DNA of 64,000 nt from a virus, in the IMG/VR virus record IMGVR_UViG_3300045996_000592, positions 70,156 through 134,155 of that record. The stretch is one strand, 5' to 3'. Positions 2,557 to 53,114 of this stretch are shown piece by piece. The position numbers were made by a program, and so were the translations under genes. Each line of letters starts with the position of its first letter. Position 1 is the first letter of the stretch. Below the pieces are notes generated by a model, which searched no databases, was not told the origin of the DNA, and saw nothing but the letters and a program-made list of their open reading frames with translations.

Positions 2557-2835
2557 CTATATTAGTTTGTCCTCCTGTTTGATAACCCTCTGTTCCATTT
2601 GTACCAACTCCCAAACCTCACAGAGCTCTATGATATCGAACTCGAAGGAGTCCTCACCGTACTTATTCCAGGCGTGCTGGAGATGAGTATTTTCATGATA
2701 ATTATATTTTAGAGTCTTCCTGTGGTTCCCCCAACGGGCTTTGAAGTTATTAGTATAACCAATATATCTTTTACCGTCAACCTTATTAGTAATACAGTAT
2801 ATACCGGACAACTTCCAGATTTCTCTTTCAGTCAT
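2557..2835 (-). mobile_element. Free-standing GIY-YIG homing endonuclease, catalytic domain only (92 aa)
   Basis: SGIYCITNKVDGKRYIG...RWGNH...HENTHLQHAWNKYGEDSFEFDIIE is the I-TevI-like GIY-YIG module; no C-terminal DNA-binding part. Confidence 0.85.
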
Positions 2836-2977
2836 GTTGATAAGGTAAGAACCTAACCCACGGAGAGCTACCCGTTATCATCCAGAGAGAGAGGAAGAGA
2901 AAGGCTCCGCAGGTTAAGTCCTGAATATTTTTAGTAGGGTTATTATCTTGTAGAAAGAGATAACGTAGTAGCTACTA

Positions 2978-3011: not shown

Positions 3012-6000
3012 CTAACGAGGGGAGTACTGAGCCCCGCTACGAGAAAAGTACAGGATATAATTCTTTTCATCACTCACCTTCCGACGTAAAAAAATATTAA
3101 CAGCACGACTTCTTATCTTAATCCTTTCGAACTCACTCTTTAAAACATCTACGTAGAGCGGGTTAACCGTCCAGGTATAACCATTAGCGTCTGTCACGAA
3201 GGGCTCGGTAGTTACATTCCTGTCGTTAGTAATATCCCATAGCGCAGAGAACCTTCTCCAGTCTTCCTTCCACGAGTACAGGATACTGTTAGCTGAAAGA
3301 CCAATGATCGGATACACACTATCGGCGTAAGGGTCGTTAGATTTTGGGAAGAGGTTCAACCACTGGCTTATTTGTGAATCGGTGAACACCAGCGCCTGGT
3401 CAAAGTTCTCTGAAGGGTACTGGTACTTATCGCTACTGTTAGCGCCGTATTTCAGGACGTCCAACCTGTACTCCACATTCCGCAGGGTAGTATTATCAAC
3501 CCCTGATCTTACCGGGTATATAACTTCGAAAGGATAATCCACCCCGTAGAAATTGCAATATAGATCGGTACGTTCGTTATGGCGCCACAGACCCCTATCC
3601 TGAGTAGTGAGGAAGTGACGGGATGTTTCGATGTTATATGAGGGGTGCCAGTCATGGTAACTCGCCCACGCTTTATTCTTACATGAGTATGACACCGTCC
3701 AGCTGGCATCCTCAAAATACAAGGGGTCTCCTAACTGAACGTAAACCGGCGCGGGCCCACCAGCAGGTCCGTAAATAACACACAGGGGATTACCCGATGA
3801 GTCATAACCGGCAAAACCTGACCCGGGAGGACACGGCCCCAGGCTGAACCCCTTACCGGGAACATAGGTCATCGGTTCCTTTGGTTTGTAGTCTTTCTTA
3901 CAGATGTACAGGGTCTCGTTCATGCTGTCGTAGATACACTGTACCCCGACACCGATAACCGGGTTGTCTATGTGGGGATAGGCCGGAAACGTGGTGGCGA
4001 TATAAGAAGGAAGGTACTTGGCGAACCAGTACTTCATCCCGTCTTTCGCAATCTCGTTCAGCCCTTCCCCGGAATAGTGGAACACCTTCCCTGCTTGCTG
4101 GCTTACCCAGAATATACCGAAGGGAGTAGAGATAATACTCATCCTCGACCGGCAGTTGGCGTACTGGAAGGACTTATCCGCGTTGACAATATTCTGTAAC
4201 GGCTGGTTGAACAGTCCGCCGTCCCCTATGGTTATCTTGGTGTTACCTGAGGTCTGGAGTGTGTCTGAACCATATACCATCAAAGGACTCTCTTCTTTCT
4301 GGAAGAACAGGGAGCCGGTCTTGTTGACACCCTTTATCGCTGTGACCGGGGTATTGAAGTCTTTGTAGTTGTTGGCTAGGAACACCCGCCAGTTATCTTT
4401 ACGGAACTCCTCGGACTGAGGCAGGCTGTACGCCACTCGGCGGGGATAATACTGGAAACAGGTGTAGGCCAGATCCGGATCATAATCCCTTCCAAGTGTC
4501 CTACCAAATGATATATACTGGGTGTAGAACTTATTCACCCCGAGGGATGGGTCCAGCTTGTAGAACGGTTCCGCCTTCATGTTATCCGACCGGAACATAT
4601 AATCCGTGTCCGTGAAGGTATAAGGATCGTAAAATCTCTTGGTTATGTCGTCTTCCCAGTCCCTGTAGTGCGCCGGCGCCTCAGCTTCTACGAAGAAATC
4701 ACGTACCCCATTACAGGACAGGTAGAAGTACCCCTTGGCCACGTAGAACGGGCTTACCGTTAACCCCGCGGAAATACTACCACCAAAGGTATGGACATCT
4801 AAATGTCTGTATCTATGAGCTACGTTCAGGAGGTCCGAGTAAATCTTCCGGTTATCCATCCAGTAACATGGGTAAGGGATATTAATGTAGTTCCTGTAGT
4901 CGTATGCGTAGTCCTCAGATTCTCCAAGTAACCAGTCGTTAAAAAACAGGAATGGATTTTTCTCAGTATAACGAACCACGTATGTATCACCACCAAACAA
5001 TATGTCCGTATTTACCGGTTGCGTGGGATTGGCCGGCAGTACACAGGATATTGGTAATTGGCGCGGAGAGTCTACCTGTCCGTACTGAGTAGCAAGGTTG
5101 AACTTGATACCACCATAGTAGCAGGAAGCGTCCCGATACACGGTAAAGAAAGAGCTCTTGATATTCGAAGACCCTGCAGCCAGACCATCGGTCTTTAAGG
5201 TAAACCGGGTGGTATCCTGCAGAGTTGGATCTGATAACAGGTAAGGTGTACCGGCAGTCGTAGTTAACTGTACAACCAGGTATGGGTTCCTGAACAGGTT
5301 ATTTATCGTGAACTGCGAGAAGCTGGATATATGTCCGGAAATATACTGGTAGTTACTCACTACTCCGGTTGGGGCCGTAGCCGCAGGTAGGTACCGGAAG
5401 TTATGATAAAGAGCGTGAGAGTTATACTGCGCGGAGTATTGGACGCCGGGAATCAACCCTGATATTACTCTTAATATTTGTTCAGACACAACCTTGAACT
5501 GGATCGGCGCTATTAGTGCAGCCATTATCCCGTTATACGCTACCTGGGCTAAATAGACAGGTGTAGATAAAGCTCCGAGCGCGTCACTTGGGTAGTTCGT
5601 GTTTATCATCAACGGAGTCTGCCACGGAATATCTGAGGTGCTGTCCAACTTTAGATCATACCCTGTAACAGCCGCTACTATAGGGGCTATCGCAGCCATC
5701 GTCCCTATGATAATACCAATCACGCTGTCAAAATCCGTAGGTGTCTTGAACATCGGGTGACGGTAAGGGACCGTAAACGCACCTTCACTCCTACCATTCA
5801 ATTCCTGGTAGATCTTGAAACCCGGCTCCCCTAAGAACGGACGGTTGAATGTAGTATCGGGACTATGGAAGGAGAATATGTCTTTCCTGTACGCTGACAG
5901 GGGTGCGGTATTCTTATCGTTAACACTGCCTTGGTCTATCTGGTTCTTATCCGCTGTCAGGAACGGATCAGGTCTGAGGTCGTTAAAAGGATAGTTCTGG

Positions 6001-15430: not shown

Positions 15431-15500
15431 GGAAGTTATAGATTAATAACTGGATAACCAAAATTATTTTTGGGTATCTAAAAAATAGTTACTAATTTAG
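15431..15500. promoter_or_regulatory. Back-to-back divergent Bacteroidota-type promoters
   Basis: Minus: TTTG(15462-15459)-N20-TAACTTCC. Plus: TTTG(15469)-N20-TAATTTAG(15493-15500). Confidence 0.55.
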
Positions 15501-46634: not shown

Positions 46635-46835
46635 TTACTTGATATTTTCTTCAAATGATCTCAGATAACAGTCGAACCCGAGCGTTACTGGATGAGAACT
46701 ATATTCTAATGGGAGTACTCCGTATGTCTTCATCAGATTCCACATACTATTATAACCTATAAGACGGTCTGTATACTCTTCCACATAAAGGTTTATATAG
46801 TTGGACAGGTGGTGTAACTTCTGTTCTGGTGTCAT
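46635..46835 (-). CDS. Hypothetical protein
   Basis: ATGA overlap with the nuclease stop. Confidence 0.55.
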   Translation of the reverse strand: MTPEQKLHHLSNYINLYVEEYTDRLIGYNSMWNLMKTYGVLPLEYSSHPVTLGFDCYLRSFEENIK

Positions 46836-47680
46836 GCCGCCTTCTTCAGTGAGTTCTGTTCCTTAAGGTAGTTGATGACTGCAGCCGCCTCTTGTTTCAT
46901 GTAGGAGAGTGATATTTCCACTACATCCTTCACGATAGGCTCACCGGCCTCGTTATACCTGATGATCCGGTTACCGTACTTATCTTCCCCATTCTCTTCA
47001 AACAGGATGTGGTTGATAGTAAGACTACCGATTGTGTAGTTGAAGTTGTGCCGGAGTACCATGTAGGCATACAAACTCAGCTGTATAGAATAATGATTGT
47101 ACTCGCAACATTCAAGGTGAGAGAGAACTCCCTTCATCATCTTAGGTGTCTTGGCCTTGACCGCATCATTCCAGAGTAGCACCGAGCTCCGATCTATCTT
47201 CTTGGAGGACTTGTGATCCCTGACGTGGAGTACGCCGTTCACGATCTCTATCTCGTCCGCCTGACCGCAGAGGCCGGCAGATTTAAGATAACATAAGTGT
47301 TCCGGGTATATTGAGTTATCCTTTAATTTCTGGTCCCGAGATAGTACACCACCGGCGGTCTTTATGGATGGCATCACCAGGAGGTCTATCCCGTGTCTGT
47401 TGACCACGGAACCACTCAGTAATTCATTCTCCTTTTTCTTATGGTACCAAGTACCAAGTTCTGTTGACCTCCTGGAGTTATCTGCCCATATCTGGGTAAT
47501 CTGTTCCGGGGTGAGCCCGTAATACTTACCGTCAACCTTCTCGCTCTGTTTTTTAGCCTGGGCGGGGTCGAACGGTTCTTTGAATAGTTTAAGCGCCGTG
47601 GTCACTGATAACCACTCTATATTTTCTCCGGGGTCGGTACTTCTGTACTTGTGATCTTCTTCTGTAAAAACGATAGACAT
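46832..47680 (-). CDS. PD-(D/E)XK exonuclease (Cas4-like, crAss type)
   Basis: FTEEDHKY, SVTT, GTWYH, CGQAD..DHKS and YSIQLSLY. Confidence 0.85.
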   Translation of the reverse strand: MSIVFTEEDHKYRSTDPGENIEWLSVTTALKLFKEPFDPAQAKKQSEKVDGKYYGLTPEQITQIWADNSRRSTELGTWYHKKKENELLSGSVVNRHGIDLLVMPSIKTAGGVLSRDQKLKDNSIYPEHLCYLKSAGLCGQADEIEIVNGVLHVRDHKSSKKIDRSSVLLWNDAVKAKTPKMMKGVLSHLECCEYNHYSIQLSLYAYMVLRHNFNYTIGSLTINHILFEENGEDKYGNRIIRYNEAGEPIVKDVVEISLSYMKQEAAAVINYLKEQNSLKKAA

Positions 47681-48359: not shown

Positions 48360-48720
48360 AGGATAGGCGTTTTAGCTTATGTTCTTCTTTCCTCTTCTGA
48401 TCTTCTTCCCAGATACTCTTCAACCTCTGTAACTTCCAGAGTTCCGATTCCTTTTTTTCTCTGACAAGATTCTTGACAACCCCTGTCAGCCTCGTCCGTT
48501 CTTCAAACTCCTCTATCTGAGTGATCCTTTTATCCAGTAACCACTCTTTTATACATAAAGTACCCAGAAGCGGTATGCGTAATCGTAAGTCTGTCAGGTC
48601 AGTAGCGAGTTCTCTAACATAAGAGTAATAACCATTCACCACCTTCCCTACGATCTCCGCGTCTACACCCAGTTTTTCAGCGGTCACCGGGATCAGCGTC
48701 TTAGCTTTTACCGGTACCAT
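48301..48720 (-). CDS. IHF/HU-like DNA-binding protein
   Basis: TAEKLGVDAEIVGKVV..LRIPLLGTL. Confidence 0.65.
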   Translation of the reverse strand: MVPVKAKTLIPVTAEKLGVDAEIVGKVVNGYYSYVRELATDLTDLRLRIPLLGTLCIKEWLLDKRITQIEEFEERTRLTGVVKNLVREKKESELWKLQRLKSIWEEDQKRKEEHKLKRLSYEQTKVPDSSPAPDNSGLV

Positions 48721-49090
48721 CCGTCACCAGGAATTTATAGGTCAGGACCATCAAAGACTGCGAAAATAATGTAATCCTGTCTGACACACAAACTTTTTTC
48801 TTATTTTTTCCCGACTTGATTATCAGTTTTTTAGACGATAATTTTTCGAAAGTATTCCGGGCAGATTGAGGGGTCGTCTTACCCCATTCAGGGGTAGCAG
48901 CTGCCTCACATAAACGGTTCAGCTCCAACCCAGGATTCAGGAATGCACACCCCAGACACAGGGTCTCCAACGGCGTCAGGGACACCTTCTCCATTACACC
49001 CCAGAAACCTATCTGGTAACAGACGGCCTGCTGTAACGTAAGTCGGTCTTTAATAATGTGTTCTGGTAATTTTGCCATAAAACTTGACAA
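48701..49090 (-). CDS. Winged-helix-like DNA-binding protein
   Basis: TPQSARNTFEKLSSKKLIIK. Confidence 0.5.
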   Translation of the reverse strand: MSSFMAKLPEHIIKDRLTLQQAVCYQIGFWGVMEKVSLTPLETLCLGCAFLNPGLELNRLCEAAATPEWGKTTPQSARNTFEKLSSKKLIIKSGKNKKKVCVSDRITLFSQSLMVLTYKFLVTDGTGKS

Positions 49091-49135
49091 ACAAAGGTAG
49101 TTAATTCCAAGAATGTTGGAAACTGTCTGAGGAGA

Positions 49136-49432
49136 TTATTCCTGTTCTGTGAGGTTTCCCCCCTGATTTTTTGAGGCTGCCTCGAACTCCTCCATCATCT
49201 TGGTCTCTTTACCGGATGGTTGGGGAGGGGTGGTCATCTGGGAATACCTGGCCTGGGCCTGCATCCGGGTCACGCGGGCTACCCATATACGAGCGTCAGC
49301 TTCTTCGACAGCTGCTTCCAGCTCCATGATTTCTTTATCATCCTTGAGGTTCTTGATGTACTCTATCCTCTTCTTAGGGTCGAACTGTTGTTGTTCCGGG
49401 GGCGGGATCTGTATTGTTTTGGTCGTGGTCAT
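49136..49432 (-). CDS. Hypothetical coiled-coil protein
   Basis: 98 aa. Confidence 0.65.
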   Translation of the reverse strand: MTTTKTIQIPPPEQQQFDPKKRIEYIKNLKDDKEIMELEAAVEEADARIWVARVTRMQAQARYSQMTTPPQPSGKETKMMEEFEAASKNQGGNLTEQE

Positions 49433-49516
49433 ATTTTTTTCAAAAAAGGGGAGTGTAAGATAAATAACAAGTAGTTAACAACAAACTGATCTTAGTCATA
49501 ATTTGTATAAGAATTT

Positions 49517-49753
49517 TTAATTAAGGAGCTCGGTGATCTTCGTAATCGTCCGCTCGTTCAACTCTTTCTGACTAATGAGGTTCTTGTTCTCAAGGGTCAA
49601 TGCCGCGATACGGGCGTCGTTAGCCTCCTGTTCCCCCAGTATCTCGCGGTTGACTTCTGTAAGCTGGTTGACGGTCTGGGTAAACACATTCATAATACCG
49701 GCACTCTTGGCCAGCAGGGACGCTGTGCGCGTCTTGAAGAGTTTGTTTAACAT
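49517..49753 (-). CDS. Small coiled-coil protein
   Basis: Start reassigned to MLNKLF, downstream of tandem promoters. Confidence 0.65.
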   Translation of the reverse strand: MLNKLFKTRTASLLAKSAGIMNVFTQTVNQLTEVNREILGEQEANDARIAALTLENKNLISQKELNERTITKITELLN

Positions 49754-49779
49754 GATATAACTGGTTTTATCTGGTAGTA

Positions 49780-49901
49780 ATAATCTAAGTAAACTTTCCC
49801 GGTTTACCAAATAAGTCCCACTAAGTTATACACGAATTTAGATAACTCCAAAAATATTTTTAGGTAAGTGTTTGGTTATCTAAAAAAGTTCCCTACTTTT
49901 G
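49780..49901. promoter_or_regulatory. Two tandem minus-strand promoters and one divergent plus-strand promoter
   Basis: Minus: TTTG-N20-TAGATTAT (49811-49780) and TTTG-N20-TAACTTAG (49852-49821). Plus: TTTG-N19-TACTTTTG (49871-49901), a perfect Bacteroides consensus. Confidence 0.65.
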
Positions 49902-49981
49902 AGGCGTAATAAGTTCTTAACGAGGCGGGGCCGGGGAAAAATAATATCTTAACCGGCCATCTTATAAACCCGACGATATTT

Positions 49982-50013
49982 AAAACGAAAACTCCCCGGA
50001 GTTATCCGAGGAG
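49982..50013 (-). terminator. Terminator at the end of the tRNA operon
   Basis: Minus CTCCTCGGA-TAAC-TCCGGGGAG-TTTTCGTTTT. Confidence 0.7.
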
Positions 50014-50036
50014 CGCGTATAGCCGGCAAGCAGAAG

Positions 50037-50112
50037 AGGGTAGGGCCGGGATCAAACCGGCGTTATCGTGGTTTTGCAGGCCACGGCCTATATCAGCATT
50101 AGCTACCTACCC
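50037..50112 (-). tRNA. trnC: tRNA-Cys(GCA)
   Basis: GGGTAGG/CCTACCC acceptor, U73, anticodon loop CT-GCA-AA, T-loop TTTGATC. Confidence 0.85.
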
Positions 50113-50116
50113 GTAG

Positions 50117-50203
50117 CGGAGAGCGGTGGTCGTGGCCCACACCCGGCATTACGCCGAGCCAGCAACTTAGCAGGTTGTGCCTACCCTGGTAGGTTCACTC
50201 TCC
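50117..50203 (-). tRNA. trnS: tRNA-Ser(GCT), non-canonical T-loop
   Basis: GGAGAGT/GCTCTCC acceptor, G73, CAAC-CT-GCT-AA-GTTG, long variable arm, T-loop GCCACGA. Confidence 0.75.
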
Positions 50204-50210
50204 AGTAAAG

Positions 50211-50296
50211 CGGAAGTGAGGAGAGTCCAACTCCTACAGCCTGTTACAGCCCTAGCGGTTTTCAAGACCGTGTACCTCAGTCAACTGGGCACTTCC
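50211..50296 (-). tRNA. trnS: tRNA-Ser(TGA), atypical D-arm and T-loop
   Basis: GGAAGTG/CACTTCC acceptor, G73, CGGT-CT-TGA-AA-ACCG, long variable arm, T-loop TTGGACT. Confidence 0.75.
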
Positions 50297-50303
50297 AAAA
50301 AAG

Positions 50304-50385
50304 TGGGAGAGATAGGACTCGAACCTACAGAACCGAAGTACCGGATTTACAGTCAGGCCTGCTACCATCTACAGAATACACTCCC
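50304..50385 (-). tRNA. trnY: tRNA-Tyr(GTA)
   Basis: Anticodon loop CT-GTA-AA, variable arm, GGTTCGAGTCC, A73. Confidence 0.88.
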
Positions 50386-50391
50386 TTATAG

Positions 50392-50462
50392 CACGAGTTA
50401 GAGGATTCGAACCCCTATCAACCGGGTTGGAGCCGGGTATACTGCCGTTGTACTAAACTCGT
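50392..50462 (-). tRNA. trnW: tRNA-Trp(CCA)
   Basis: ACGAGTT/AACTCGT acceptor, G73, CCGG-CT-CCA-AC-CCGG, GGTTCGAATCC. Confidence 0.88.
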
Positions 50463-50485
50463 ATTCTGCGGAAACAGAAGGACTT

Positions 50486-50827
50486 TTACGCAGCTGTCGC
50501 ACAATAATGCAATTCCCCGTGACAGTTGGCGCAGACTAAAATACACTTGTCCAGTTCAGTCTTTATCTTATCCCACGACTTTGTGTGACCATCATGGGAA
50601 ATATTAAAGTCTTTTTCTGATGGATCTAAGTGGTGGAATTGAAGACTTCCTATACAGTTGGCATAACCGCATATGGAGCAGTTTCCACCTTTATAATCTA
50701 CGGCCAGCATTTTTATTTTATTCCTTCTTTTCTGTACAGATATTACTGTACATTTTCTACACCGCGATCTTTTACCTCCGCCATCGGAGAATTCGGTGAG
50801 CCCGTGGGTTTTACAAGTTTTTAGCAT
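50486..50827 (-). mobile_element. HNH homing endonuclease
   Basis: CKTHG..RCRKC..YKGGNCSICGY..LQFHHLDP..ELDKCILVCANCHGELH. Confidence 0.9.
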
Positions 50828-50831
50828 ATAA

Positions 50832-50863
50832 ATAATATACTAAAAAAATATGTCCTAACCAAA
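50832..50863 (-). promoter_or_regulatory. Promoter of the HNH cassette (leaderless or near-leaderless mRNA)
   Basis: TTTG-N20-TATATTAT, only 4 nt before the ATG. Confidence 0.65.
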
Positions 50864-50896
50864 CAGGTTCTACCAACTGAGCTATGTTTCCTTGCG

Positions 50897-51016
50897 GCCC
50901 GATTAACTACGAGTATGCTGCATATCTGTGATTCCGGGAACGGAGCAGACGCGGCGCCTGTACGGAGGATACACTTTCATGTATACGAACCACCTGACGG
51001 TCTTAGTTAACCGACA
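50897..51016 (-). ncRNA. Candidate ~120-nt structured RNA inside the tRNA operon
   Basis: Closing stem CGGTTAACTA/TAGTTAATCG, inner stem GTGGTTC/GAATCAC, hairpins ATACAT-GAAA-GTGTAT and CAGGCG-CCG-CGTCTG. Confidence 0.55.
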
Positions 51017-51023
51017 ACTTTAG

Positions 51024-51098
51024 CCGTCCATACCAGACTCGAACTGGTGACTTCCGGAGTGACAATCCGGCGTAGACTCCTGGCTCCACTAATGGACG
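51024..51098 (-). tRNA. trnD: tRNA-Asp(GTC)
   Basis: CGTCCAT/ATGGACG acceptor, G73, CCGGA-TT-GTC-AC-TCCGG, T-loop TTCGAGT. Confidence 0.88.
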
Positions 51099-51099
51099 A

Positions 51100-51174
51100 T
51101 GGCGGTACGGGATGGGGTCGAACCACCGACTCCCAGATCTTCAGTCTGGAGCTCTACCACTGAGCTACCGTACC
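51100..51174 (-). tRNA. trnF: tRNA-Phe(GAA)
   Basis: GGTACGG/CCGTACC acceptor, encoded CCA, CCAGA-CT-GAA-GA-TCTGG. Confidence 0.9.
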
Positions 51175-51211
51175 AAACAAAAACCCCGGTAAGTTTTTAT
51201 CCTACCGGGGT
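51175..51211 (-). terminator. Attenuator terminator directly in front of tRNA-Phe
   Basis: ACCCCGGTA-(11 nt)-TACCGGGGT-TTTTGTTT; the 5' arm is shared with an antiterminator. Confidence 0.85.
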
Positions 51212-51233
51212 CAAGTGACTTACTGATGAGTAA

Positions 51234-51299
51234 CTACACGATCCCCCGGCCGGTATCATACCAGCTGCAGAAGTTCGAGAAGTTATTAGTCAGTGTCAT
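51234..51299 (-). CDS. Putative attenuator leader peptide MTLTNNFSNFCSWYDTGRGIV
   Basis: 21 codons after a U-rich leader; codons 5-15 (AAT AAC TTC TCG AAC TTC TGC AGC TGG TAT GAT) match the tRNA array; its 3' end forms an antiterminator. Confidence 0.75.
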   Translation of the reverse strand: MTLTNNFSNFCSWYDTGRGIV

Positions 51300-51304
51300 A
51301 ACAA

Positions 51305-51556
51305 AAAATTCTAAGCACCCTACGATAGACCGTCGTCTACCTTCACCGGTGATTCCGGTTCCACTGAGCGCCCTGATCTTACGGGAAGGGGTGCGGGTGA
51401 ATGAGTTTAGGCCAAATACCCCGGTTCGAACAGGGTTCACCCCAAATTAGCGCCACGACTCGGCGCCCGTTAAGGTATAGATTCCCAAGATGGCCTGAGA
51501 GCTGTCCAGATACTTCCCCTACCTGTTAGGATTGTCCAGAGGGGTATCCTGCTCTT
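51305..51556 (-). ncRNA. Structured 5' leader / ncRNA of the tRNA operon
   Basis: Stems GATAC-CCCT/AGGGG-AA-GTATC, GGGTGAA/TTCACCC, GCACCC/GGGTGC, CCTTC/GAAGG and TAGAC-GACG-GTCTA, plus a GTTCGAA T-loop hairpin. Confidence 0.55.
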
Positions 51557-51562
51557 TATACT

Positions 51563-51593
51563 ATAAATTAAGTAAAGTAACCCACTCTACAAA
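51563..51593 (-). promoter_or_regulatory. Promoter of the leader/tRNA operon
   Basis: TTTG-N19-TAATTTAT. Confidence 0.7.
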
Positions 51594-51594
51594 A

Positions 51595-51852
51595 TTATTT
51601 TCCGGGTAGTTTGTCTATCTCCATCTCAAACCATTTGATGTACATATTCTTTACCGTCCCGAGTTCACGCTCAGAATCCAGTTTAAATGACCTGTAGTGA
51701 ATAACCCGGGAGTTAAGAGTAACTTCATAAGAGAGCTCATCAAAGCAGGTCCCGTGGATGAACTCGGTCCGGGTTATTATAATGGCCCACTCTCCTTTAT
51801 AGCGAACTTCTTCCCGCGTACTGACTGGACCAGTAAAGTTAGTGTATTGCAT
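51595..51852 (-). CDS. Hypothetical protein
   Basis: Start reassigned to MQYTNF. Confidence 0.6.
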   Translation of the reverse strand: MQYTNFTGPVSTREEVRYKGEWAIIITRTEFIHGTCFDELSYEVTLNSRVIHYRSFKLDSERELGTVKNMYIKWFEMEIDKLPGK

Positions 51853-51862
51853 GGGTTCATTA

Positions 51863-52075
51863 TTAGTGATTACTGAACAATAAGGGGTAGAATACCGGAA
51901 GGTTATAACCGCTGAGAATGTTAAATCCACCGCCGAACCCCGGTCTGATAAAGCCACCGGGTTTTATATGAGAGCAAGAGTTATGCTGGGGTAACAATCT
52001 TACAGGATCTTTAATAATAATAGATGCTTGGGATAGCATCCACATACGGTAACCTGATAGGGGTATGTTATTCAT
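51863..52075 (-). CDS. Hypothetical protein
   Basis: 70 aa between operon neighbours. Confidence 0.45.
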   Translation of the reverse strand: MNNIPLSGYRMWMLSQASIIIKDPVRLLPQHNSCSHIKPGGFIRPGFGGGFNILSGYNLPVFYPLLFSNH

Positions 52076-52079
52076 AGGG

Positions 52080-52352
52080 TTATTTTACGAGCTCATAGGT
52101 TTGTTCGAAGATGTCGGGCTTACAAGGATAGTACTCTCCCTTTATCCCCCTGATGATGTAGTCGCCTACTTTACCAATCATTACACCTTCTAATGTGTTC
52201 ACCTGAACATAACAACCAGTTGGGTTATCATCTGACGGTTCACAAACAGGGGACTCTATTACTGCGTTATTTGACCACGACTTGATATTAGGCCCGTTCG
52301 ACCCTGTAAACTGGATGGCTTCTATTACTACTGGTTTTTTACGGTACTGCAT
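52080..52352 (-). CDS. Conserved phage protein (YRKKPVVIEA / GDYII family)
   Basis: YRKKPVVIEAIQF..TLEG..GDYIIRGIKGEYYPCKPDIFEQTYE. Confidence 0.8.
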   Translation of the reverse strand: MQYRKKPVVIEAIQFTGSNGPNIKSWSNNAVIESPVCEPSDDNPTGCYVQVNTLEGVMIGKVGDYIIRGIKGEYYPCKPDIFEQTYELVK

Positions 52353-52376
52353 GAGTAAGGTTTTTGGTTAGGATAC

Positions 52377-52408
52377 CTAAGATAAGGTAATAAGAAGGGT
52401 ACTCCAAA
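52377..52408 (-). promoter_or_regulatory. Bacteroidota-type promoter
   Basis: TTTG-N20-TATCTTAG. Confidence 0.6.
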
Positions 52409-52596
52409 AATTTTTACCCCCGGAATTTTTAGACCCTCGTATCTGGACGGATCAAACCTTATCAGGTATCCCTTAGGAATTTTTGGTAGGAAAAAAATCA
52501 GCCGTGGGAGAGGGTTTCAGGGGTTACTATAAAACTTCTCCCCCACTTACTCATAGCGCGGCACACCCCCGGGGTGATAAAACCGCCTTATATTTT

Positions 52597-52848
52597 ATGT
52601 CAGCTATCGCATTATCGACATTCAAAGAGACCGTGGGTCTCAAGACACTGCAGTTCATGAAGGGCAGAGGACGCCAGTACTGCGCGTTACCTAACGGTAA
52701 GACCCTGTTTATGGCAGCCAAGCTCGACAAGAGCAAACCGCTGTTCGTGTTCACCGCACCAACCGGCGCCAAGAGCGGCAAGGGGGAAGACATCTCCGGC
52801 AGCTTGTGGGTGTGTAACCAGAACGCAACCCTTGGTGACCTGCTGTAA
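52597..52848 (+). CDS. Small protein, first gene after the strand switch; paralogue of 8165-8722
   Basis: ATG after TTATATTTT; MSAIALSTFKETVGL...; followed by a terminator. Confidence 0.75.
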   Translation: MSAIALSTFKETVGLKTLQFMKGRGRQYCALPNGKTLFMAAKLDKSKPLFVFTAPTGAKSGKGEDISGSLWVCNQNATLGDLL

Positions 52849-52858
52849 CAGCGGGTTT

Positions 52859-52903
52859 GAGGGAGAGGATGCCGTACTCGGATGTTCTCTCCCTCTTCTT
52901 TTA
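52859..52903 (+). terminator. Intrinsic terminator
   Basis: GAGGGAGAGGAT...GTTCTCTCCCTC-TTCTTTT. Confidence 0.75.
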
Positions 52904-52958
52904 ACTCTTATTGTTTAACTATCTGTAGTTACCGGTCTACTCAAAACCGGGTTATATT

Positions 52959-53114
52959 ATGAAAAAGATATCATTTACCAACAGGAGCTGGAACTCCATC
53001 TGTAATGCGTATGACTCACTGGTACGCAAGTACGGTAAGAAGTCAGTGAAGGCACCTCAGTACCGTAAGAACAGGTCACACCTGTTGGATGGGTATATAG
53101 AGGTAGCGTTCTAA
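52959..53114 (+). CDS. 51-aa basic hypothetical protein
   Basis: MKKISFTNRSWNSICNAYDSLVRKYGKKSV...; ATG after TTATATT. Confidence 0.55.
   Translation: MKKISFTNRSWNSICNAYDSLVRKYGKKSVKAPQYRKNRSHLLDGYIEVAF

Follow-up and report, generated by a model that had tools for sequence, protein, structure and literature searches.

The window analysed here is a stretch of 64,000 nucleotides (nt) covering bases 70156-134155 of the virus record IMGVR_UViG_3300045996_000592. The record comprises 134,155 bases, is rated complete by CheckV, and occurs as an identical sequence without variants in two soil metagenome DNA runs; we refer to its source as the soil phage. On the minus strand of the window an array of transfer RNA (tRNA) genes is preceded by a short leader open reading frame (ORF) and an intrinsic terminator. 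This locus is, we think, likely to be a ribosome-mediated transcription attenuator of the trp/his/ilv type that controls read-through into the tRNA array. An attenuator had been proposed for the locus from its sequence alone (the original prediction), and the proposal survives, in a trimmed form, tests of RNA folding, comparison with shuffled sequences and with the other terminator-like hairpins of the genome, and tests of the codon match between leader and array. It also finds a parallel in the Caulobacter phage RB23.

The leader and its predicted switch

The leader ORF is present where it had been placed, at 51299-51234, and reads MTLTNNFSNFCSWYDTGRGIV. It is a short ORF with its own start and stop codons upstream of the genes to be regulated, and an intrinsic terminator stands between it and the first of these genes, as expected of an attenuator. 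Between the end of the ORF and the terminator stem there are 21 nt. The terminator was also said to end right at tRNA-Phe, which it does, the one running to 51175 and the other starting at 51174. This leaves no room for a promoter between them, and the first tRNAs must therefore be transcribed through the terminator. Just ahead of the ATG, 12 nt rich in A and U stay single-stranded in the predicted fold. The leader is presumed to be translated. No stop codon interrupts its frame as far back as a GTG at 51440, which would extend it to 68 amino acids (aa), so that the ATG at 51299 is not the sole possible start; the extended frame of 68 aa matches no PHROG or Pfam family.

The switch can be described with four regions of the leader RNA, of which regions 1 to 3 are given in Table 1 and region 4 is the strand that forms the terminator with region 3. 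In the minimum-energy fold of 51310-51170 we find the terminator together with the small hairpin over the Trp-Tyr-Asp-Thr codons that had been noticed earlier. This fold has a z score of -4.52, and none of 200 shuffles matches it. In the competing antiterminator, CCGGGG (51249-51244) pairs with CCCCGG (51210-51205), with more pairs inside, and the two structures exclude each other. When the pairs of each structure are forced in the free RNA, the terminator has an energy of -52.1 kcal/mol versus -44.0 kcal/mol for the antiterminator, a margin of 8.1 kcal/mol. The pairing of region 1 with region 2 holds the regulatory codons, and RNA that is not being translated is predicted to terminate.

The ribosome was modelled as a block of unpaired RNA that begins 15 nt ahead of the A-site codon's first base and ends 12 nt past it. 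With this block at codons 7, 9, 11, 12 or 13 the minimum-energy fold trades the terminator for the antiterminator, and with the block at codons 1-6 or 14-22 it keeps the terminator. Folding the leader with and without a ribosome footprint had been proposed as a check on the original prediction; it gives the terminator in the free RNA and, once codons within the stretch 7-13 are blocked, the CCGGGG/CCCCGG antiterminator that had been drawn by eye. Subtracting the energy of the terminator from that of the antiterminator gives, for the A site at codons 7 to 13 in turn, -1.7, +1.9, -1.1, +0.1, +0.1, -2.3 and -1.5 kcal/mol; the block model is a simplified thermodynamic treatment, and differences of 1-2 kcal/mol are within its error. 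The terminator is ahead by 2.1-4.5 kcal/mol with the A site at codons 1-6, and once the A site has reached codon 14 the ribosome block covers region 2. The positions that switch stay inside codons 6-13 when the footprint is varied between A+7 and A+15, and with every footprint in this series the stop codon lets a ribosome that finishes the ORF mask region 2. If the RNA is cut before the 3' arm of the terminator, as at the moment of decision, the antiterminator is formed with the block at any of codons 1-13; none is formed in the cut RNA when it is free or blocked at codons 14-22.

Such behaviour is rare. In a control of 400 dinucleotide shuffles of the ORF and spacer, with the terminator retained, no sequence had three or more switch positions and only one had at least one. 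The genome itself offers a second comparison. It has 16 terminator-like hairpin calls (two of which are one site); 14 of them never switch, one is unfolded even in the free RNA, and the leader hairpin is the sole one that terminates when free and switches when blocked.

The codon match between leader and array

The sensing window of codons 7-13 was picked by folding alone, and it turns out to be the part of the leader richest in codons cognate to the array, with six of the seven read by array tRNAs. This is the richness in cognate codons that the control region of an attenuator should have. Four of the codons in the sensing window, UUC, UGC, AGC and UGG, form Watson-Crick pairs with array anticodons at all three positions. 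Six consecutive residues of the leader, F-C-S-W-Y-D, spell all six amino acids served by the array without repeating any, and a hexapeptide permuting these six residues occurs in one of the 268,276 six-frame windows of the genome, which is the one at the leader. Extended to nine codons, the block F-S-N-F-C-S-W-Y-D is the only one among 172,280 stop-free windows of the genome to combine at least eight cognate codons with all seven tRNAs; the looser combination of at least six cognate codons and at least five tRNAs in seven codons is reached by 65 of 188,843 windows. The earlier statement that every intact tRNA of the array has a cognate codon in the leader is thereby upheld, since the nine-codon block covers all seven, and UCG and AGC, the codons for Ser, can be assigned one to each of the two Ser-like genes.

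The original prediction went further and had the phage sampling about eight host tRNA pools with one peptide. The sampling of several tRNAs stands, and the number eight does not. No footprint tried brings Tyr14 or Asp15 into the sensing window, so that about five tRNA species plus Asn would be sampled. This bears out a caveat that had accompanied the prediction, namely that a ribosome stalled at the Tyr and Asp codons might still cover part of the antiterminator arm.

A similar design in Caulobacter phage RB23

The first of two tRNA blocks in RB23 (MZ574433.1) is preceded by a promoter of the form TTGACA-N17-TATAAG, the ORF MSKSYRQFVRQIQFVRVNRAGRSRMDDGGTRV, and a G+C-rich hairpin followed by a T-run. 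The array of this block consists of Val-GAC, Ile-GAU, Val-CAC, Gln-UUG, Asn-GUU, Arg-ACG and Phe-GAA, and the 15-residue run YRQFVRQIQFVRVNR of the leader is the unique run of at least nine array residues among 136,108 residues in the six-frame translations of the RB23 loci examined. Under the identical ribosome-block model the RB23 leader terminates when free, switches with the block at codons 6-16 only, and terminates thereafter. A codon-matched leader and a predicted switch that depends on the position of the ribosome are thus found together at both loci.

The likeness between the two leaders lies in the short ORF that spells the array, followed by a terminator and the array itself, and in the three-state behaviour in the block model. 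The differences are equally clear. RB23 is an unrelated phage of an unrelated host and has no sequence similarity to the soil phage, its promoter immediately precedes the ORF, and with 14-15 codons its regulatory run exceeds that of the soil phage. Because two unrelated phages show the same design, our confidence in the soil-phage locus is raised.

The second RB23 block, with Pro, Thr, Lys, three Leu, His, Ala, three Ser and Trp tRNAs, follows gp135, which is annotated as a hypothetical protein (2787-2906, plus strand, of the RB23 stretch L112). From its sequence, gp135 looks like the leader peptide of this 12-tRNA block: 27 of the 28 residues at positions 5-32 are drawn from the amino-acid set of the block, although runs of these residues are common in the G+C-rich DNA of RB23, so that only block 1 is statistically strong.

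A further observation concerns block 1. At about 5196-5290 (plus strand) of the RB23 stretch L105, between the leader terminator and tRNA-Val, there is an unannotated tRNA-like gene whose variable arm is long, whose anticodon loop carries GUA and whose CCA is encoded. It was read by hand and is not called by ARAGORN. One Tyr codon opens the regulatory run of the RB23 leader, and this Tyr may be matched by the GUA tRNA-like gene.

The proposed mechanism

According to the proposed mechanism, transcription from upstream would reach the leader and a ribosome would start at the ATG at 51299. When codons 7-13 (Phe, Ser-UCG, Asn, Phe, Cys, Ser-AGC and Trp) are read fast, the ribosome would move on to codons 14-22 and cover region 2; regions 3 and 4 would then form the terminator, and the transcript would stop one base before tRNA-Phe. 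When a cognate charged tRNA is scarce, the ribosome would lag in codons 7-13 with region 1 covered and region 2 free. Region 2 could then pair with region 3 (CCGGGG with CCCCGG) and block the terminator, which would let the polymerase proceed into the genes for Phe, Asp, the HNH endonuclease, Trp, Tyr, the two Ser-like tRNAs and Cys. In the absence of any ribosome, regions 1 and 2 would pair and the terminator would form.

The net effect would be a feedback loop on the speed at which the codons read by the array tRNAs are decoded. As the products of the circuit are the very tRNAs that read the leader codons, it would be self-correcting. We infer that stalling takes place in vivo and that it is triggered by depletion of host tRNA. 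Possible triggers would be depletion of host tRNA by a defence nuclease, host shut-off, or the codon demand of late infection; the link to host anticodon nucleases is a conjecture.

Relation to known attenuators

Leader-peptide attenuation is a textbook form of control of amino-acid operons. The closest in design are the multivalent attenuators of enterobacteria, such as the ilvGMEDA leader with its Ile, Leu and Val codons and the thr leader with its Thr and Ile codons. Like the soil-phage locus, these have a short leader ORF, the pairings 1:2, 2:3 and 3:4, an intrinsic terminator, and several kinds of regulatory codon. They differ in controlling biosynthesis genes and in having runs of regulatory codons, whereas the soil phage has tRNA genes downstream and a leader in which about six amino acids, matched to those tRNAs, have one or two codons apiece. 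The pheST attenuator, which has a Phe-rich leader, controls phenylalanyl-tRNA synthetase and shares with the soil-phage locus that a component of the translation apparatus, not a biosynthetic enzyme, is regulated; in pheST, though, the controlled gene encodes a protein and one amino acid is read. T-box riboswitches, too, sense the status of tRNA through a choice between terminator and antiterminator, but there a single uncharged tRNA is bound directly and no translation is involved. Described leader-peptide attenuators regulate amino-acid biosynthesis or aminoacyl-tRNA synthetase genes. The regulated genes of the soil phage are tRNA genes, and we therefore class the locus as a variant of the attenuators rather than as an ordinary member.

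In the trp and his attenuators, according to one account, transcription of the leader races the translation of the regulatory codons, a stall leading to read-through and fast translation to termination (PMC1183508). The mechanism proposed for the soil phage is the same in that a stalled ribosome would read through and a fast one would terminate. The trp and his leaders sense the supply of one amino acid, whereas the soil-phage leader would sense charged tRNAs encoded by the controlled genes themselves, which feed back on the sensor. An inducible array of extra tRNAs is described in Anabaena PCC 7120, where the trn operon is silent by default and turned on when translation is impaired; its control is exerted at the promoter through direct repeats and a repressor, TrcR (PMC8421152; PMC10272220). 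The soil-phage array would resemble it as an inducible extra tRNA array and differs from its promoter-level control. In PMC8421152 the words attenuat-, leader and terminator have no occurrences.

An attenuator of tRNA genes is apparently unpublished. A full-text literature search, with subscription journals and supplements outside its scope, found no leader-peptide attenuator before tRNA genes, and the accessible portions of PMC3082878, PMC3890552, PMC4117421 and PMC2965389 make no mention of tRNA-gene attenuation. No publication on the RB23 leader was found either.

Points against the attenuator and alternative explanations

Several observations weigh against the attenuator. No relative carrying this array or leader was found in the collections searched, and the sequencing runs listed for the stretch are DNA runs only, with no RNA run that holds it. 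The promoter that had been placed at 51593-51563 is represented by weak consensus matches only. Within the leader there are one or two codons per tRNA and no run, and the three Asn codons of the block, of which one is in the sensing window, have no counterpart among the array tRNAs. According to the block model, in which differences of 1-2 kcal/mol are within error, a shortage of Tyr or Asp would not induce read-through. In the array, the two Ser-like genes and the Cys gene are atypical, and not all of them may be functional; the HNH gene, which may have a promoter of its own, lies between the attenuator and the distal five tRNAs. Of the two blocks in RB23, the second is weak on its own.

The alternative that survives best, though we consider it unlikely, is that a chance ORF lies before an ordinary terminator that ends an upstream transcription unit, the codon match and the alternative pairing being coincidental and the tRNAs arising from leaky read-through or an unrecognised promoter. 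The locus is indeed a singleton, with no relative found to share the array or leader, its promoter matches are weak, the translation of its leader is a prediction, and its ATG is not the sole possible start within the 68-aa frame; there is also a look-elsewhere effect to allow for, since exactly such a pattern was sought. Set against these points is the coincidence of two independent rarities, a codon block found once in 172,280 windows and a switch found in none of 400 shuffles. Coincidence would also have to account for a switching hairpin that no other stable terminator-like hairpin of the genome equals, for a fold-defined sensing window that is at the same time the richest in cognate codons, and for the like design in RB23.

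Slightly less probable still is a real switch that is set by something other than a ribosome, such as a protein, a small RNA, a bound tRNA in the manner of a T-box, or the upstream 280 nt, with the ORF incidental. The switch is better supported than the translation of the leader, and a long untranslated stretch lies ahead of the ORF, both of which speak for this explanation. A T-box riboswitch was considered and rejected, there being no match to a T-box covariance model at E <= 1 within 48500-53000, and no other riboswitch family of Rfam passes this threshold there. The upstream stretch is no better folded than its shuffles and folds apart from the switch. A switch without a ribosome would, moreover, leave unexplained why region 1 is written in the codons of the array and why the stop codon sits inside region 2.

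That the ORF (21 aa, or 68 aa from the GTG at 51440) encodes a small functional protein with the hairpin as its terminator is very improbable: the open frame exists, but it matches no PHROG or Pfam family, a degenerate DNA pattern for residues 9-16 found no homologue beside tRNA genes in three collections, and the switch is left unexplained.

The search for relatives

The search for relatives of the locus was made from several starting points. The 120-aa protein encoded upstream of the leader has no related locus in IMG/VR and stands alone among 5.8 billion proteins; searches with the RepL-like protein gave no related locus with an array, and a search with the exact terminator sequence found no related locus either. 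The large terminase led to one fragment of 17.9 kilobases (kb), with 54% identity and no tRNA. The exonuclease of the phage was more productive, as its search returned seven loci, one with a tRNA, and an alignment of its family brought in 595 relatives in IMG/VR. Among the best 80 of these 595 relatives' loci, seven have one or two tRNAs and none has an array, and five large related records have 0-2 tRNAs each. No leader-like ORF was seen, by eye and without a statistic, in the 260 nt upstream of the scattered tRNAs of the relatives.

Among GenBank phages, blastn found pieces of the HNH gene and tRNA-Phe only, with none of 55 records covering 80% of the query, and tblastn with the exonuclease found one record at 23% identity. 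A degenerate DNA pattern for leader residues 9-16 gave one match in IMG/VR, nine in metagenome contigs and five in genome contigs. All 15 were judged to be chance matches: 14 are at loci without a tRNA, and the remaining one, from a metagenome, has a single tRNA about 280 nt away and no terminator behind it.

The exonuclease itself, of the PD-(D/E)XK type (46832-47680, minus strand), belongs to a large family with 662 proteins at E <= 1e-20. Many of the members are on contigs of about 120-135 kb, and the sampled relatives are without a tRNA array. This distribution points to a widespread group of phages of about 120-135 kb.

The array and its surroundings

The features of the locus are collected in Table 1. 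The tRNA genes of the soil phage are confined to this single array according to a scan of the whole genome with ARAGORN. The set of seven intact tRNAs that had been read from the sequence stands in part. Five are called by the program (Phe, Asp, Trp and Cys by default, Tyr at a relaxed threshold), and the two Ser genes are probable, non-canonical genes read by hand. The Rfam tRNA model passes Phe, Trp and Asp alone; tRNA-Tyr has a sub-threshold match to the Rfam tRNA-Sec model (30.3 bits), and tRNA-Cys is absent from the Rfam results at E <= 1. Neither Ser-like gene is called by ARAGORN, even at ps60. Both have acceptor stems of 7-8 pairs, long variable arms and intact UGA or GCU anticodon loops, together with odd T loops.

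Table 1. Features of the leader, tRNA array and flanking DNA, in order of transcription (positions in the window)
Feature	Position	Strand	Remarks
Orphan gene, 120-aa protein	ends 51595	minus	Upstream neighbour of the leader stretch
Candidate promoter region	51563..51597	minus	TAATTTTG at 51597-51590, plus the originally predicted span 51593-51563
Untranslated stretch, upstream gene to leader ORF	51300..51585	minus	Lies in the about 295 nt without a recognised element that follow 51595
Leader ORF, 21 codons + TAG	51234..51299	minus	ATG 51299 to TAG 51234; reads MTLTNNFSNFCSWYDTGRGIV
Region 1, anti-antiterminator strand	51268..51284	minus	Pairs with region 2 in minimum-energy folds of the free RNA
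Sensing window, codons 7-13 (F S N F C S W)	51261..51281	minus	6/7 codons read by array tRNAs
Region 2, antiterminator 5' arm	51229..51249	minus	Starts CCGGGG; codons 17-21, stop and 5 nt
Region 3, antiterminator 3' arm	51205..51224	minus	Ends in CCCCGG, the core of the terminator 5' arm
Intrinsic terminator	51175..51212	minus	12-pair stem (7 G-C) at 51212-51182, 7-nt loop, T-run
tRNA-Phe (GAA)	51100..51174	minus	ARAGORN default; Rfam 67.2 bits; CCA encoded
tRNA-Asp (GTC)	51023..51098	minus	ARAGORN default; Rfam 49.7 bits
Spacer, 131 nt, no tRNA	50892..51022	minus	No Rfam match
tRNA gene split by HNH gene	50469..50891	minus	Read by hand; 5' part starts at 50891
HNH endonuclease ORF, 113 aa	50827-50486	minus	phrog_2255, E 7.9e-31
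T-loop/acceptor remnant and G73 of broken tRNA	50485-50469	minus	Read by hand
tRNA-Trp (CCA)	50391..50462	minus	ARAGORN default; Rfam 56.7 bits
tRNA-Tyr (GTA), long variable arm	50303..50385	minus	ARAGORN at relaxed threshold only
Ser-like tRNA, anticodon TGA	50296-50211	minus	Read by hand; Rfam tRNA-Sec model 25.8 bits
Ser-like tRNA, anticodon GCT	50203-50117	minus	Read by hand; no Rfam match
tRNA-Cys (GCA)	50036..50112	minus	ARAGORN default
Terminator closing the array	49991..50014	minus	10 pairs, 6 G-C; never switches under the block model

An eighth, destroyed tRNA gene with a discriminator G had also been reported, and it is real, with its 5' part starting at 50891 and its remnant at 50485-50469. 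The HNH gene has replaced its middle, the part with the acceptor strand and D arm surviving on the 5' side; this 5' part is without an intact anticodon loop. Nothing was found to support the suggestion that it was an Asn tRNA: blastn ranks a phage tRNA-Thr first, at E 0.3, with further matches to Pro, Phe, Ala and Gly tRNAs, and these matches do not single out one amino acid. A spacer of 131 nt separates tRNA-Asp from the broken tRNA, and the other spacers of the array are 1-10 nt long. The fold of the long spacer (50891-51022) has a z score of -0.88, and 41 of 200 shuffles are equal or better.

Upstream of the leader, the picture is less definite. The octamer TAATTTTG at 51597-51590 matches the -7 motif of Bacteroidota; this motif is not enriched in the window (22 found versus 34.7 expected), and no -33/-7 motif pair is present at the candidate promoter region. 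A sigma-70-like site with 9 of 12 positions matching is at 51623-51594. The stretch 51585-51305 had been called a structured leader, which we could not substantiate, as its z score is -0.37 and 74 of 200 shuffles fold equally well. In a fold of 431 nt this upstream stretch folds separately from the switch, and no Rfam family found at E <= 1 within 48500-53000 lies in the untranslated stretch 51300-51585. At 51493-51410 (minus strand), upstream of the leader ORF, ARAGORN at ps70 picks up a weak tRNA-like shape with a good T-arm, which may be a decayed tRNA gene.

The phage has genes for a portal protein, a large terminase and a major head protein. Shine-Dalgarno sites are scarce across its genome, any 4-base match being present at 9 of 137 crude gene starts, and the DNA upstream of gene starts is A-rich and G-poor at positions -16 to -9. 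These two features fit, and on sequence grounds suggest, a Bacteroidota-like host.

A recurring intergenic motif, TTTAGATA/TTTAGGTA, was noted at 49837-49901, at 15482 and at other sites. It is often followed by CCAAA and sometimes occurs as an inverted pair (TTTGGTTATCTAAA), and 9 of the 12 occurrences of TTTAGGTA, counted on both strands, are intergenic. The motif, which came from a search for intergenic 8-mers, is a candidate phage promoter or operator; within the leader it has just a loose match.

Implications for phage tRNA genes

If the attenuator is real, the tRNA genes of the phage would be regulated by demand rather than simply expressed. The supply of tRNA would be turned on when host tRNAs are depleted, as by anticodon nucleases or phage-induced host shut-off, and turned off once the phage tRNAs suffice. 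The leader could then be taken as a readout of which host tRNA pools the phage expects to run short. This would bear on the question of why phages carry tRNAs, for which the matching of codon usage and the rescue from tRNA-targeting defence are the two sides. The leader and its terminator would also offer compact parts, taken from nature, for sensing a tRNA pool.

The soil phage and RB23 would be independent instances of the design, which would mean either convergent evolution or an old and widespread logic for the control of tRNA genes. It is possible, although we would offer the generalization tentatively and with somewhat more doubt than belief, that phages with tRNA arrays commonly gauge the decoding capacity of the cell by means of a codon-matched leader and transcribe their tRNAs when this leader is read slowly. 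With a similar design in a cultured Caulobacter phage, the idea is one that can be tested at the bench.

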